Shown: one piece after another, positions 13,412 through 18,938 of the stretch
How the letters are laid out: each line of letters starts with the position of its first letter
How positions within the stretch are numbered: the first letter of the stretch is position 1
NCBI GenBank assembly: GCA_964016885.1
Contig: OZ024740.1
Coordinates: 418,686,001-418,750,000 of the forward strand
Direction of reading: 5' to 3'
Length of the DNA: 64,000 nucleotides
From: Eledone cirrhosa
Lineage: Eukaryota
The notes under the pieces: generated by a model
Told to the model about the DNA's origin: nothing
Databases searched by the model: none
What the model saw: the letters and a program-made list of their open reading frames with translations, nothing else
Translations under genes and position numbers: made by a program

Positions 13412-13708
13412 TATATATATATATATATATATATATATATATATATATATATATATATATATATATATATATATATATATATATATATATATATATATAT
13501 ATATATATATATATATATATATATATATATATATATATATATATATATATATATATATATATATATATATATATATATATATATATATATATATATATAT
13601 ATATATATATATATATATATATATATATATATATATATATATATATATATATATTATATATATATATATATCTATATATATATATATATATATATATATA
13701 ATATATAT
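13412..13708. repeat. (TA)n microsatellite, ~300 bp
   Basis: Direct reading. Confidence 0.99.
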
Positions 13709-13760
13709 AAAAGAATTAAAATACTAGAGTGTGCTAGAGTTAAAGATATAGAGCCGAAGA

Positions 13761-14060
13761 ATTATAAAAAAATAAACGAAAAAAGCCTTCAATACATCAA
13801 AAGTCTTTATTAGCCAACAATGTTTCGTCCTATTAAGGACTCATCAGGGCAAGTAAAGCTACAAGAAGCACTATTGGCCAATACAAGCCAAAAACTCAGA
13901 AGAATATGGAGTATACATCTATTAAAGCTTAGGAAAGATATCAAGGAAAAGTTGGCTAAGATTAAGAGTGAGCAGTTACAAACATAGATATAGACCAAAT
14001 AGCAAGGAAGTGATTAACATGTTGAACCCACATTGCAAATATTGTATAATGCAAAAACTT
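13761..14060 (-). mobile_element. Penelope-like pseudo-LTR, left inverted copy
   Basis: Near-identical reverse complement of 18588-18887; contains a hammerhead core followed by AATAAA. Confidence 0.75.
13813..13850 (-). ncRNA. Minimal type I hammerhead ribozyme motif
   Basis: GCC-CUGAUGA-GUCCU(UAAU)AGGAC-GAA-AC(AUU)GU-U-GGC. Confidence 0.75.
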
Positions 14061-14823
14061 ACAAAAACTTACAAAAACTTACAAAAATATCACAAAATAT
14101 TACAAAATATAACAGAACAGTACCTCAAATATATTAAAATCTATAATACGATTACATAAAAATGATATGATATAACAACGTTAATATCAAATAGCAAACA
14201 GAGTGTAAGGAAATGCTTAATATATATATATTTACGTGGTTGACATACACAGACATATATTAATGAAATTACATGATCAGACAGACAGCGTGTGGTAGTA
14301 AAAAAAATGTTGTGATATTTTGGTAATATTTATGCCAATGTAAAATGACTTGACCTCTGTGTATTTGTTACAATGGTATAGATATTTTTTCAACACAATT
14401 TTTTCAACACAATTTAGTTCTATATGATATTTTTTTCTTACCCTGTGTAAAACTTTACACTATTTGTTAACCTTGAATTATATGTATGATGTAATTTTGT
14501 ATATCTTTTGATGCCAATATATTATAATATTGTTATTATAATGTTTTTATATTGTTTATGCACACTGACAGGGAATTATATATTATATTTTATTTTTATT
14601 TTGATCTTTATTCTTATTTTTATCTTTATTATATTATACTGTAAACAATATATATATATATATTTAAATACTTAATAAGTGTTAGTTTGTGTTTGTACTA
14701 ATGTGTATATGTATGGATATATAGATATCTTCCTCTACCATTGTCGCTGAACAACAGCAAAAACCAACGACCGTAGCTTCTGCTACTACCCCCGTTGAAG
14801 GACTTCATCAACAACAGCAACCC

Positions 14824-15555: not shown

Positions 15556-18374
15556 ATCAGAACAACCTGCCATCCCCTGCACATAATCATAGACTGGAAT
15601 CAAAGTACAAATTGTTGTCCTTGAATGCACGTAGTCTATGCAATAAGATTCATCTTTTTGACTCCTACGTCAAAAGTATCAACCCGGACTTCATTACAGT
15701 CACGGAAACTTGGGCACATCCCTTACTCTGTGATGGGGTTTTCAGCATGACTGGCTACAACCTGTTTCGTAAAGACCGTATTAATCGTCGTGGTGGTGGT
15801 GTAATGGTCTACGTTCGGTCAAATCTGTCGGCAATTCCTTGTGCTGATTTGAACCAATCACAGCAGGAAGTTTTTTTCTGCGATATACGTATGACCATGT
15901 CAACACTGCTACTTGGAGTCGTTTACCGTCCCCCAAATTACCATCAGGACACTCAACTTTGTGATATCCTCAGAGCTGCTGCCAGGAAGACAGCCACTTA
16001 TGTTTTCATTGCAGGTGACTTCAATCACCCTGAGATTGACTGGGAGACCTTTCGTTGGCCGCCAAGTGCAAATGACTTCCTTGAGCTGGTGCTGGACTCG
16101 AGTTGGTCCCAGGTGGTCACCTCCCCAACGAGAGGTGACAACACTTTGGACCTACTCTTCACCACTACTCCTGAAACGGTCATTAGTGTTACTGCTGAGG
16201 AACCTTTAGGTGACTCTGATCATGCTATGATCATTGCCAATCTATCCCTCATGGGCAGTAACAAGAACCACAACCATCTCCAAACTGCTCACTTTGACTG
16301 GAATAAAGCAGACTGGAACTGTTACTGCACCGAGTTGCAACGGCCAAACTGGCTTGAGTTCTATGACTCTGGAGATGTCAACACTGTACTCCAGAACATC
16401 CTGAGCTCAATATGGACAGCATGTGCAGCATCGGTGCCACGTAAGCGGAAAAAACATCCCAAAAGCGCAATTTGGGAGACTGCAGCAGTCCGTCTTGCCA
16501 GAAAAGAACGGCGCAATGCTGAACGTGAGTACAAACTTCACAAATCAGACATTAATAGGAAGAGGCGAAATAGATCGTCCAACCACCTCAAACAGGTGAC
16601 AAAAAAGGCAGTGTTTCAATTTGAGCAGCGCATAGCAACCAGCCCTGACAGTAAGGTGTTCTGGAAGTATGTTCACTCAAAGCAGAGGCCTCACTCTCCA
16701 GTTGGTCCTCTTCGCAATCCCCACACAAGCCAGGTTACTGACGACCCCAAGGAATGCGCAGAGTTCATTGCTGAATGCTATGCAGGCATTTTCACCATTG
16801 AAGACCAGAGTGTACCATCTCCACCACCTATGACACCGGACTCTATTACAACTATGGAATTTACACCTGCAATGCTGCGACGTCACCTAAAAAATAAACG
16901 CAACCATGCCTCTCCTGGTCTTGATGGTGTTACGTACCTGCTTCTTAAACGTGGTGGGTACTTCCTTCTACACCAGTTATCACGCTTCTTCCAATTCTGT
17001 CTGAACAACAGTGCTACTCCAGAACAGTGGAAAACTGCCAGTGTAATTCCTCTGTTCAAAAAGGGTGACCGCACATCACCTGTGAACTATCGTCCAGTCA
17101 GTCTTACTAGTTGCATCGCCAAACTGATGGAATCCTGTGTCAGAGAAACACTTTGGAACTTCTGGAGCTCTCACAGTCTTATCCGGCCCTCGCAATTTGG
17201 ATTTATCCCCAACTCCAGCTGCTGTGATCAACTTATAGAGTTTCTTGAGGACATCACCCGGATCACTGATGGCGGCTCATGGGTGGATGTTGTTTACCTT
17301 GACTTTGCGAAGGCCTTCAATTCTGTGCCGCACAAAAGGCTTATGGCAAAACTCTCTGCAATGGGTGTGAAGGATGATCTTTTTAACTGGTTGAAGTCCT
17401 TCATTCTCAGTCGAAGAGAGGTAGTCACGGTTCTGGGACAGCATTCCTCACCATATGAGATGTCATCTGGTGTACCACAGGGATCTGTTCTTGGCCCCCT
17501 TTTGTTTGTGGCATATATTAATGACATAGATGCCAACTTAAAGAATGCCACAGTACTAAAGTACGCAGACGACATCAAGCTGTACCTTGAGATAAAAAGG
17601 ACAGATCCTGAACACTATAGATCTTGCTTGCAGTCTGACCTGGACACAATGCAACAGTGGATCTCAGACTGGCAACTCAAGCTAGCTGTGGACAAGTGCA
17701 CCACCATGCATTTTGGGAGTAAAAACCCAGCGTCCACATACTCCCTCCACAGCACTAATATCAAGAAGTCTTCCTGTGAACGTGACCTGGGCATTACGGT
17801 CAGCAGCGATTTGCGTTGGACGAGGCACGTCTCTAAAATTGTCAAGAGGGCCGAGGGTGTCTTAGCATCACTCAGCAAGACCTTTGTCAGCCGCTCTCCA
17901 GATATCTATTTAAGGCTGTATACAGCTATGGTGCGACCACACTTAGAATTTGCATCACCAGTCTGGAACCCCTATTTTGCTCAGGACATTGACCGCCTGG
18001 AAACTGTTCAGAGACGTGCAACCAAGCGAATACCCTCCATCAGGCATCTACCATACTCTGATCGCCTTGCTTCCCTGGGCATGGATTCATTGAAGCTCCG
18101 ACGCCTGGCAACTGACTTGGTAAACACCCACAAAATTGTTAACCATGTTGCCAACAACAACCCTGAGTGCCTTTTCGATTTCCATGTGTCTAACACACGT
18201 GGACATGCCCACAAAGTAAGAAAACAGCACAGTTCCCATGACTTTCGGAAACATTTTTTCACGCTCAGAGTTGCTGAAGCATGGAACAAACTACCTGCAT
18301 CAGTTGTTAGCTGTCGAGACACTGCATCCTTTAAGGCCTCCATGCTTCCCGAGATCCGCCAACACTACAGCTAA
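15537..18374 (+). CDS. CR1 ORF2: APE endonuclease + reverse transcriptase, uninterrupted
   Basis: LNARS, ETW, GGGV, YRPP, GDFN, SDH (APE); QFGF, LDFAKAF, GVPQGSVLGP, YADD (RT); CR1-type C-terminus VRPHLE...WNP...TRGH...WN.LP. Start given as the first base after the upstream in-frame stop. Confidence 0.93.
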   Translation, partial: KNSGKLNQNNLPSPAHNHRLESKYKLLSLNARSLCNKIHLFDSYVKSINPDFITVTETWAHPLLCDGVFSMTGYNLFRKDRINRRGGGVMVYVRSNLSAIPCADLNQSQQEVFFCDIRMTMSTLLLGVVYRPPNYHQDTQLCDILRAAARKTATYVFIAGDFNHPEIDWETFRWPPSANDFLELVLDSSWSQVVTSPTRGDNTLDLLFTTTPETVISVTAEEPLGDSDHAMIIANLSLMGSNKNHNHLQTAHFDWNKADWNCYCTELQRPNWLEFYDSGDVNTVLQNILSSIWTACAASVPRKRKKHPKSAIWETAAVRLARKERRNAEREYKLHKSDINRKRRNRSSNHLKQVTKKAVFQFEQRIATSPDSKVFWKYVHSKQRPHSPVGPLRNPHTSQVTDDPKECAEFIAECYAGIFTIEDQSVPSPPPMTPDSITTMEFTPAMLRRHLKNKRNHASPGLDGVTYLLLKRGGYFLLHQLSRFFQFCLNNSATPEQWKTASVIPLFKKGDRTSPVNYRPVSLTSCIAKLMESCVRETLWNFWSSHSLIRPSQFGFIPNSSCCDQLIEFLEDITRITDGGSWVDVVYLDFAKAFNSVPHKRLMAKLSAMGVKDDLFNWLKSFILSRREVVTVLGQHSSPYEMSSGVPQGSVLGPLLFVAYINDIDANLKNATVLKYADDIKLYLEIKRTDPEHYRSCLQSDLDTMQQWISDWQLKLAVDKCTTMHFGSKNPASTYSLHSTNIKKSSCERDLGITVSSDLRWTRHVSKIVKRAEGVLASLSKTFVSRSPDIYLRLYTAMVRPHLEFASPVWNPYFAQDIDRLETVQRRATKRIPSIRHLPYSDRLASLGMDSLKLRRLATDLVNTHKIVNHVANNNPECLFDFHVSNTRGHAHKVRKQHSSHDFRKHFFTLRVAEAWNKLPASVVSCRDTASFKASMLPEIRQHYS

Positions 18375-18587
18375 CACATACAAACATGTACTTCCCTGGC
18401 ATTTGTGTATTATTCTATGTACTATATTGACGAGTTGTAGTGCACCTGAGCACTTTACACAATAATTTCATTATTATTATTATATATATATATACATATA
18501 TTAAGCTTTTTATTATCACCATCCATTATATTATATTATATTCTATATCGTACTGTAATTCTCGCATTATATTACCATTTGTGTTTC

Positions 18588-18887
18588 AAGTTTTTGCATT
18601 ATACAATATTTGCAATGTGGGTTCAACATGTTAATCACTTCCTTGCTATTTGGTCTATATCTATGTTTGTAACTGCTCACTCTTAATCTTAGCCAACTTT
18701 TCCTTGATATCTTTCCTAAGCTTTAATAGATGTATACTCCATATTCTTCTGAGTTTTTGGCTTGTATTGGCCGATAGTGCTTCTTGTAGCTTTACTTGCC
18801 CTGATGAGTCCTCAATAGGACGAAACATTGTTGGCTAATAAAGACTTTTGATGTATTGAAGGCTTCTTTGGTTTACTTTTTTATAAT
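18588..18887 (+). mobile_element. Penelope-like pseudo-LTR, right copy
   Basis: Inverted partner of 13761-14060, followed by (TA)n. Confidence 0.75.
18798..18835 (+). ncRNA. Minimal type I hammerhead ribozyme motif
   Basis: GCC-CUGAUGA-GUCCU(CAAU)AGGAC-GAA-AC(AUU)GU-U-GGC, then AAUAAA; differs from the left copy only in loop II. Confidence 0.75.
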
Positions 18888-18938
18888 ATATATATATATA
18901 TATATATATATATATATATATATATATATATATATATA

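Follow-up and report, generated by a model that had tools for sequence, protein, structure and literature searches.

A CR1-group LINE between inverted hammerhead-bearing repeats in Eledone cirrhosa: probable nesting in the remnant of a Penelope-like element

A LINE in the genome of Eledone cirrhosa lies between two inverted repeats, each of which carries a hammerhead motif, and the whole is bordered by (TA)n on either side. The question raised by this locus is whether it constitutes a composite mobile element or one retrotransposon inserted into another. Analysis of the surrounding 64,000 nucleotides of contig OZ024740.1 (the window) favors the latter: with a probability of roughly 0.75, the unit is a gene-less remnant of a Penelope-like element (PLE) in (TA)n, whose arms are a 3′ pseudo-LTR (pLTR) with its tail and an inverted, shortened copy, and into which a CR1-group LINE later inserted. 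The arrangement is likely ordinary nesting, not a new composite element. If, as is most likely, it is one retrotransposon nested in the remnant of another, the locus matters little by itself, both kinds having been recently active in the genome; it does point to a hammerhead-bearing PLE family in octopus that is probably uncatalogued. According to the literature, O. vulgaris has 30 recently active Penelope families and 13 CR1 families. The parts of the unit outside the LINE are as follows.

13412..13709, no strand: left (TA)n tract, likely insertion target (TRF; longest pure TA tract in the window)
13710..13760, minus strand: 50-nt extension of the left copy only, candidate PLE tail (arm homology stops at 13761)
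13761..14060, minus strand: left arm, candidate 3′ pLTR (repeat comparison)
14061..14727, no strand: left spacer, AT-rich, element interior or captured host DNA (no ORF remnant)
18482..18587, no strand: short right spacer, opening with (AT)6
18588..18887, plus strand: right arm, candidate inverted and shortened pLTR copy (repeat comparison)
18888..18939, no strand: right (TA)n tract (TRF; the repeat call spans 18882-18939)

The preliminary description of this locus reported nearly identical inverted repeats of ~300 bp, (TA)n bounds, and no Penelope ORF, all of which stand. The arms are 300 nt each, inverted, and identical at 295 of 300 positions (98%), and both begin at the same inner base. 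Their five differences make an assembly artifact unlikely. No third copy of the arm was found in the 64-kb window. The outer ends are not flush, with the left copy extending a further 50 nt before it reaches (TA)n. By analogy with PLEs described in PMC8557442 and PMC3846280, this extension is a candidate tail, although the usual PLE tail is 30-40 nt; nothing else in the unit matches the extension (91-446 of 500 shuffles do equally well). The window has 47 pure TA tracts of at least 10 nt, of which the flanking pair (243 and 54 nt) exceeds all others in length, and any target-site duplication would be hidden within that pair. TA tracts also adjoin the ends of neighboring SINE-like elements and other LINEs (4 of 12 tails examined).

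Minus the LINE, the unit is 1.4 kb in length and ORF-less. Pfam searches of the arms and spacers, with X at stops, gave 0 families in 9/9 frames and no PLE ORF remnant, so the unit is filed only as a PLE-like remnant; its PLE identity rests on noncoding anatomy because neither a PLE ORF nor a parent family was found. The left spacer region contains 10-bp repeats at 14052-14114 and a switch in AT skew near 14330, which was considered as an inversion point and is not supported as such, since the halves of the left spacer have no significant homology. The right and left spacers show no significant similarity (48/500 shuffles score equally well), and comparisons of spacer with spacer, tail with spacer, and left-spacer halves revealed no significant hidden homology (48-446 of 500 shuffles as good).

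Both arms contain a hammerhead motif.

13805..13858, minus strand: left type I hammerhead motif, predicted cut after 13816, AATAAA at 13806-13811
18790..18843, plus strand: right type I hammerhead motif, predicted cut after GUU at 18832, AATAAA at 18837-18842

The cores start at 13847 on the minus strand and 18801 on the plus strand and face outward. A structural descriptor matched the window only at these two motifs and matched none of 200 dinucleotide-shuffled windows; the core pattern with up to three mismatches likewise gave only two matches, versus 0 in 100 shuffles. The conserved core (CUGAnGA, GAAA, UH) and helices I-III are present, with 15/15 modelled pairs Watson-Crick in both arms. 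The sole ribozyme difference between the arms is in loop II (18813/13835), as had been noted earlier along with the outward orientation and the AATAAA after each motif. Rfam HH9 matches both motifs at 28-28.5 bits, under its gathering score of 52. The distance from core to unit end is 86 nt on the right and 137 nt on the left, and the unit runs 55 nt (right) and 106 nt (left) past the predicted cut sites.

The arm motif fits the PLE consensus in its U-rich lead-in, 3-bp helix I, G10.1-C11.1 pair, palindromic helix III, and AU-rich 3′ side. Unlike the usual PLE minimal motifs, it has no additional base after A9, and its helix II size, loop II length, and helix I flanks are those of the canonical HH9 model. 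Helix III is 2 bp, position 17 is U, helix I comprises only three contiguous pairs, and the active fold is not the predicted minimum. Because the two ribozymes lie on opposite strands, the locus itself can provide no cis dimer. Taken together, a helix III of just 2 bp, U at position 17, the helix predicted to lock the motif from upstream, and a single sense copy on either strand predict a ribozyme that is weak or silent here.

The LINE occupies the center of the unit.

14728..18481, plus strand: 5′-truncated CR1/L2-group LINE
14728..15555, plus strand: ORF1 remnant (repeat linker, coiled coil, C-terminal domain; no Cys/His-rich N terminus)
15537..18374, plus strand: ORF2, 945 aa stop to stop with no stops (AP-type endonuclease and reverse transcriptase)
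18375..18481, plus strand: 3′ UTR with a small stem-loop and an (ATT)4 tail at 18470-18481

The preliminary description credited this CR1 element with intact ORFs, which holds for ORF2 and fails for ORF1. The alignment of the ORF1 frame begins at residue 145 in one relative (405 aa) and at residue 118 in another (394 aa), and the frame is thus short of ~120-145 N-terminal residues present in its relatives, six of seven of which are named Octopus vulgaris. The copy is therefore 5′-truncated; with no complete ORF1, it is not full-length. The Cys/His-rich N terminus of the relatives was found nowhere in the 64-kb window. Three further copies of the LINE in the window all lack arms and have the same 3′ end, and the 3′ stem-loop and microsatellite tail are common to all four. 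No clean target-site duplication surrounds the LINE, the candidates being a 7-nt AT match and, by eye, an 11/12 AT-rich match. Its unbroken frames point to a young LINE; at 0.8% drift the probability of finding no stop is 0.32, and at 2% it is 0.07.

A full-length relative of ORF1 is similar to clusters that bear PHD (Atlas 0.90-0.92), with PHD families found on 11-21% of their members. Against the PDB, the best match to the ORF1 profile has an E of 0.05, with coiled-coil peptides only, and Pfam found nothing significant on two ORF1 relatives. We label the element a putative CR1 from C-terminal motifs and from the resemblance of the ORF1 relative to PHD-bearing clusters, a label under which CR1 and L2 are not separated by a tree. 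Similar to CR1/L2-lineage LINEs with a PHD-type ORF1 (PMC4120745), it has an ORF2 with endonuclease and reverse transcriptase, a microsatellite tail, and a 5′ truncation; unlike them, this copy has lost the Cys/His domain.

These features are best accommodated by one of the two possibilities raised in the preliminary description, a non-autonomous fold-back of Penelope origin into which a CR1 inserted. A PLE protein encoded elsewhere in the genome would have cut (TA)n and copied the element, which would read on the minus strand with its tail at the left, and the inverted copy would have formed in the same event. The LINE would then have inserted itself at an AT-rich site within the spacer, using its own target-primed reverse transcription. 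We infer this order, PLE first and LINE second; the ribozyme would serve the life cycle of the PLE, not that of the LINE. Known PLEs show a 5′-truncated inverted copy, a tail of 30-40 bp on one of the ends, and a bias for (TA)n (PMC8557442); the inverted pLTR is shorter than the 3′ pLTR (PMC3846280), and paired hammerheads lie on opposite strands, 100-700 bp apart (PMC4209133). The hallmarks present here are a hammerhead near the 3′ end of a terminal repeat, an inverted shorter copy opposite, and (TA)n together with a palindromic helix III. The hammerheads are ~1,200 bp apart once the LINE is discounted.

Among known PLEs, the unit most resembles by these analogies the Hydra clade, which occurs in octopus (O. 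bimaculoides; PMC8557442); (TA)n and the palindromic helix III are not exclusive to that clade. Hydra-clade elements such as Penelope-13_HM and Hydra-1_Obim share with the unit the (TA)n target, a hammerhead ~100-200 nt from the 3′ end, a palindromic helix III with a tiny loop, and U17, which is frequent in the clade (PMC8557442); by our count, 10 of the 26 rows tabulated for the clade have U where the cut falls. The (TA)n target and helix III were compared with that table by eye. Penelope-13_HM also has an inverted 5′ copy and a hammerhead on each strand (PMC8557442). In contrast to Hydra-clade PLEs, whose RT/EN motifs are RWK, DKT, and CxCX5C with no CCHH, the unit has no RT/GIY-YIG ORF and holds a LINE, and its hammerhead sequence is unlike that of Hydra-1_Obim. 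None of four arm motifs occurs among the sequences shown in the supplement of PMC8557442, where long ones are incomplete. The PLEs of Schistosoma and of a Cotesia bracovirus (PMC4209133) likewise comprise truncated elements with two PLE-type hammerheads on opposite strands; those of Schistosoma are 100-700 bp apart versus the 1,200 bp seen here without the LINE, and the unit differs in having no extra base after A9. In the largely open-access literature searched, Repbase not included, no paper was found that describes hammerhead repeats flanking a CR1 or the octopus motif seen here.

A distinctly improbable alternative places the LINE between two pLTRs already at a donor locus, with PLE enzymes copying the whole 5.2-kb unit in trans; if the whole unit did recur elsewhere, PLE termini would be spreading a LINE as cargo. 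There is precedent in Pen1-3_Av of Adineta vaga, which have a shorter inverted pLTR, an optional tail, unique spacers, and unrelated DNA between pLTRs, features with likely counterparts in the unit. In A. vaga, an NRPS gene with introns, along with other unrelated DNA, was enclosed and mobilized by pLTRs, and the Pen1 spacers are captured host DNA (PMC3846280). Here the spacers are mutually unrelated and ORF-less, and the apparent youth of the LINE leaves the order of events unfixed. Pen1-3_Av differ in that their target-site duplications can be seen and a direct pLTR often lies upstream, and their cargo was host genes or noncoding DNA, not a LINE (PMC3846280). The published case lies between direct pLTRs, whereas no direct upstream pLTR is present here; the window contains a single such unit against three armless LINE copies, and the LINE sits where the sequence resembles an AT microsatellite, which is what insertion in place would predict.

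Less probable still, the arms could be monomers of a non-LTR retrozyme (300-350 nt, hammerhead, circular RNA) inserted in opposite orientations. Similar to metazoan non-LTR retrozymes (PMC7229834), they are noncoding, of appropriate size (300-351 nt) and low GC (32-34%), and bear a type I hammerhead. The features in common with canonical HH9 also fit, a helix that locks the ribozyme might suit a circular RNA, and retrozymes have been proposed to derive from pLTRs (bioRxiv 10.64898/2026.07.22.740005). Unlike retrozymes, the arms are not tandem, with no head-to-tail repeat found within the window, and their circles show no greater folding stability than shuffled sequences (z +0.8 to +1.0 at all three boundaries tried), whereas retrozyme circles are highly self-paired; the three contiguous pairs of helix I also weigh against a retrozyme.

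Very little recommends a DNA transposon of foldback or MITE type (300-bp TIRs, TA duplication), or two independent insertions of one short element, on either side of the LINE: long inverted repeats within TA and nearby palindromic elements would suit the former, but the one-sided 50-nt extension leaves the ends uneven and a ribozyme is useless to a DNA transposon, and the shared inner start base and 98% identity, with no other copy in 64 kb, make independent insertions unlikely. Scarcely credible is the second possibility of the preliminary description, a LINE-driven composite with the right ribozyme as the end point of its sense transcript, which gains from a right hammerhead in sense to the LINE 320 nt past its tail and from the open ORF2, but is disfavored by the truncation, own (ATT)n tail, and armless copies of the LINE, by genomic arms that run past both cut sites, so that cleaved RNA could not template the unit, by a poly(A) signal that lies 3′ of the cut and would therefore be lost from cleaved RNA, and by folding predictions in which two-arm read-through RNA forms a 300-bp duplex (-510 kcal/mol) that buries the ribozyme and a one-arm transcript is locked.

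Within the preferred reading of a PLE remnant, the predicted lock deserves separate description.

13869..13883, minus strand: left-copy 15-nt strand predicted to pair over the cut site, holding a perfect 12-nt palindrome
18765..18779, plus strand: upstream strand, predicted 15-bp pairing with 18826-18840 that buries the cut site
18787..18789, plus strand: TAG directly ahead of helix I, weak candidate splice acceptor

The 15-bp helix has pair probabilities of 0.98-0.99 for 13 of 15 pairs, a helix of that length arose in one of 1000 shuffles, and the probability of helix I in a one-arm transcript is 0.005. A candidate splice acceptor ahead of helix I has a parallel in Penelope of D. virilis (PMC4209133). 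Its AG lies at 18788-18789 (13859-13860 in the left copy), and three GTAAGT sites on the minus strand at 14062-14082 are candidate donors. One unlikely but concrete model is a gated ribozyme, in which the upstream strand would lock the hammerhead until splicing at the AG before helix I, or a PLE protein, unlocked it, such that the octopus PLE family would cleave only processed transcripts. The function of PLE hammerheads has been called unclear (PMC8557442), and an Anolis hammerhead cleaves only with protein (PMC11167929). Such a gate would tie the as yet unexplained role of PLE hammerheads to a concrete switch, and were the lock conserved and released by splicing or protein, that function would become directly testable. 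Unlocking by dimerization through the 12-nt palindrome was rejected on energetic grounds (approximately -41 to -44 versus -55 to -57 kcal/mol for two locked monomers).

Coding frames in the arms were also considered. A 55-aa frame antisense to the hammerhead (13820-13987) was rejected as a gene, as it gave 3 matches among 1.84 billion representatives, all short and in tandem-repeat proteins, and both arm differences inside it alter residues. For a 67-aa sense frame, 0/33 candidates scored, which is weak evidence. Other palindromic elements lie close by, at 12719-12942 and 20144-20292.

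The unit is most likely a 5′-truncated CR1-group LINE inside a gene-less insertion of Penelope-like element (PLE) type, a known layout and a case of ordinary nesting. It comprises the following features:

13412-13709, left (TA)n tract
13710-13760 (-), 50-nt left extension, candidate PLE tail
13761-14060 (-), left arm
14061-14727, left spacer
14728-18481 (+), LINE
18482-18587, right spacer
18588-18887 (+), right arm
18888-18939, right (TA)n tract

The nearly identical inverted arms and the bounding (TA)n of the preliminary description hold. The arms are identical at 295 of 300 positions, and the (TA)n tracts bounding the unit are the two longest of the 47 pure TA tracts in the window. 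Its statement that a Penelope ORF is absent also held, with no coding remnant detected in nine frames of the non-LINE DNA of the unit. The left copy continues for 50 nt beyond the sequence common to both arms before reaching (TA)n, and the arms are therefore not flush. Without the LINE, the unit measures about 1,420 bp, with the hammerhead cores 1,200 bp apart. No relationship was detectable among the left spacer, the right spacer, and the 50-nt extension. Three of the five arm differences lie within the last 25 nt (18866-18876 / 13772-13782; chance about 0.009, post hoc test), and the two arm 3′ ends may have had differing templates. The left arm has at its inner end a 10-bp repeat (14052-14114) with three GTAAGT sites on the element sense strand, and the right arm begins inside the last unit of this repeat. 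In addition, an ATG-initiated frame of 55 codons runs antisense to the hammerhead (13820-13987 (+), mirrored in the right arm) and is uninterrupted in both copies of the arm; no credible homologue of this frame was found.

The arm layout, by comparison with published families, matches that of PLEs. PLE insertions are described as having an inverted 5′-truncated copy, carrying a tail of 30-40 bp on one end, and favouring microsatellites (Craig et al., PMC8557442). PLEs of A. vaga combine a tail with an inverted pseudo-LTR (pLTR) that is shorter than its 3′ counterpart (Arkhipova et al., PMC3846280), and paired hammerheads on opposite strands are reported in PLEs (Cervera and De la Pena, PMC4209133). 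The arm motif fits the PLE hammerhead consensus of the latter study, minus the extra base after A9. On this comparison, the nearest match for the arms is the Hydra clade, which shares with the unit (TA)n targets, a palindromic helix III, and U at the cut site (10 of the 26 rows listed); its member Penelope-13_HM likewise has an inverted copy with one hammerhead per strand (PMC8557442). O. bimaculoides has a Hydra-clade family, although the Hydra-1_Obim hammerhead differs in sequence from the arm motif (PMC8557442). Recent activity is reported for 30 Penelope and 13 CR1 families in O. vulgaris (PMC13282606), and 235 hammerhead loci are listed for the giant squid genome (PMC6962438). Because no parent ORF tied to the arm was found, the arms are filed as PLE-like and non-autonomous, with no assignment to a named clade; Repbase, Dfam, or published sequence supplements may already contain the family.

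Each arm carries one outward-reading hammerhead motif. These two motifs are the sole matches to a structural descriptor in the window, and 200 dinucleotide shuffles gave none. Rfam places both motifs in its hammerhead model HH9, but at 28 bits they fall under the curated score of 52. Each of the 15 modelled pairs is Watson-Crick, with 3 + 5 in helix I on either side of an internal loop, five in helix II, and two in helix III, within a 9-nt palindrome with one mismatch at its centre. As first described, the predicted cut follows GUU at 18832, AATAAA comes after it (from 18837), and loop II holds the only inter-arm difference within the motif. Even in a 59-nt fragment, the active fold is predicted at -8.1 and -9.0 kcal/mol versus minima of -12.9 and -13.8 kcal/mol, and the isolated ribozyme is probably weak. 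A U at position 17 is disfavoured among viroid hammerheads (PMC1636495), though common in those of PLEs. Minimal PLE motifs are reported to cleave poorly and only as multimers (PMC4209133), and an Anolis PLE hammerhead requires protein for cleavage (PMC11167929). Since the ribozymes lie on opposite strands, this locus would yield no cis dimer.

A predicted 15-bp upstream helix, pairing 18765-18779 with 18826-18840, covers the cut site and lowers the helix I probability to ≤0.005 in both arms. This putative helix is a new observation here; one this long arose in 1 of 1,000 shuffles of the upstream sequence, in a test devised post hoc. The sole arm difference inside the upstream strand preserves pairing (A-U to G-U), which weakly supports the helix. 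Moving the start to 18790 gives a helix I probability of 0.97 for the left copy and only 0.17 for the right, so release by trimming is not uniform. A TAG ending exactly at 18789 is a candidate splice acceptor, recalling D. virilis Penelope, in which the intron ends at helix I (PMC4209133); it is one of 15 YAG sites on the same strand, with only 8 pyrimidines among the 14 nt before it. That the predicted helix acts as a functional gate is unlikely, and it may be a mere by-product of a short duplication of a palindromic 12-mer.

Of the ORFs described as intact in the LINE, ORF2 is open over 945 codons, with matches to RT and AP-endonuclease families, but the ORF1 frame starts internally and lacks its N terminus. 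Seven relatives of this frame were found, six named Octopus vulgaris, and the ORF1 alignment begins only at residue 145 in a relative of 405 aa and at residue 118 in one of 394 aa. The Cys/His-rich N terminus of the relatives has no match anywhere in the window; the LINE copy thus begins within ORF1, at about 14728. Its 3′ end is a small stem-loop followed by (ATT)4, ending at 18481, and recurs without arms in three further window copies (30103-30681, 52789-54190, and 57133-58302). The usual footprint of a self-inserted LINE is 5′ truncation plus its own tail. No clean target duplication is visible around the LINE, the best exact match being a 7-nt AT repeat. We take "CR1" as a provisional group label, assigned in part from C-terminal motifs. 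The full-length ORF1 relative resembles PHD-bearing clusters, a lead only, and PHD ORF1s are known from CR1 and L2 lineages alike (PMC4120745).

Within 15537-15747, ORF2 overlaps the ORF1 stop by 19 nt; its first ATG is codon 71, in the endonuclease domain, and its start is therefore not a plain ATG. At 18375-18430, the nested 3′ UTR lacks three short segments found in all three other copies, which makes it useful for tracing this one. At 52789-53801, a tandem array with 16.6 copies of a 61-bp unit stems from the 3′ end of the same LINE's ORF2 and is a minisatellite of LINE origin; the 3′ UTR of the LINE, carrying an insertion, comes after it. Two LINE 3′ ends lie head to tail at 30015-30104 and 30103-30681, one starting within the (ATT)n tail of the other.

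As to origin, the unit likely began when a PLE protein, working in trans, placed a copy that was truncated or carried an internal deletion in a (TA)n tract. This copy would read on the minus strand, with its tail at 13710 and its inverted copy at 18588-18887, and insertion of the LINE into the AT-rich spacer likely came later. Arm divergence corresponds to roughly 1-2 million years at a rate quoted in PMC13282606. The probability of stop-free LINE frames is 0.32 at 0.8% drift and 0.07 at 2%, and lower with indels; as the frames are unbroken, the LINE is at least as young as the arms, which fits later insertion without proving the order. Passive movement of pLTR-framed DNA, LINE included, is the surviving version of a composite unit and has a precedent in A. 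vaga, where an NRPS gene, along with other unrelated DNA, was mobilized by pLTRs (PMC3846280); we consider it quite improbable here. Arm size and GC would fit retrozyme copies (PMC7229834; bioRxiv 10.64898/2026.07.22.740005), and the motif has features in common with canonical HH9, but the window has no tandem array of the arm, and arm copies folded as circles do no better than shuffles. A LINE-driven mobile unit whose sense transcript ends at the right ribozyme, an option raised in the preliminary description, is very unlikely: the genome extends beyond both cut sites (RNA cut at 18832 would stop 55 nt short of the right arm's end and be without the poly(A) signal, and the left end reaches 106 nt beyond its cut site), and a two-arm RNA would pair as a duplex of about -510 kcal/mol.

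The nested unit lies in a region where elements have piled up at TA tracts; of 12 neighbouring repeat tails examined, 4 directly adjoin such a tract. Near-perfect palindromic, MITE-like elements occur beside TA tracts on each side of the unit (12719-12942 and 20144-20292). A dispersed composite repeat at 13020-13411, itself flanked by TA tracts, is SINE-like, with a weak tRNA match at 13343-13400 (23.6 bits, under threshold). A second LINE family, presumably RTE-like, has (CAT)n tails and a PHD finger after the RT domain (18940-20084 (-), 21079-23283 (-), and 61843-62880 (-)). Segments 22922-23250 and 63672-64000 share 329 bp of 100% inverted identity, continuing off the window end, and are likely two very young copies of this second family.
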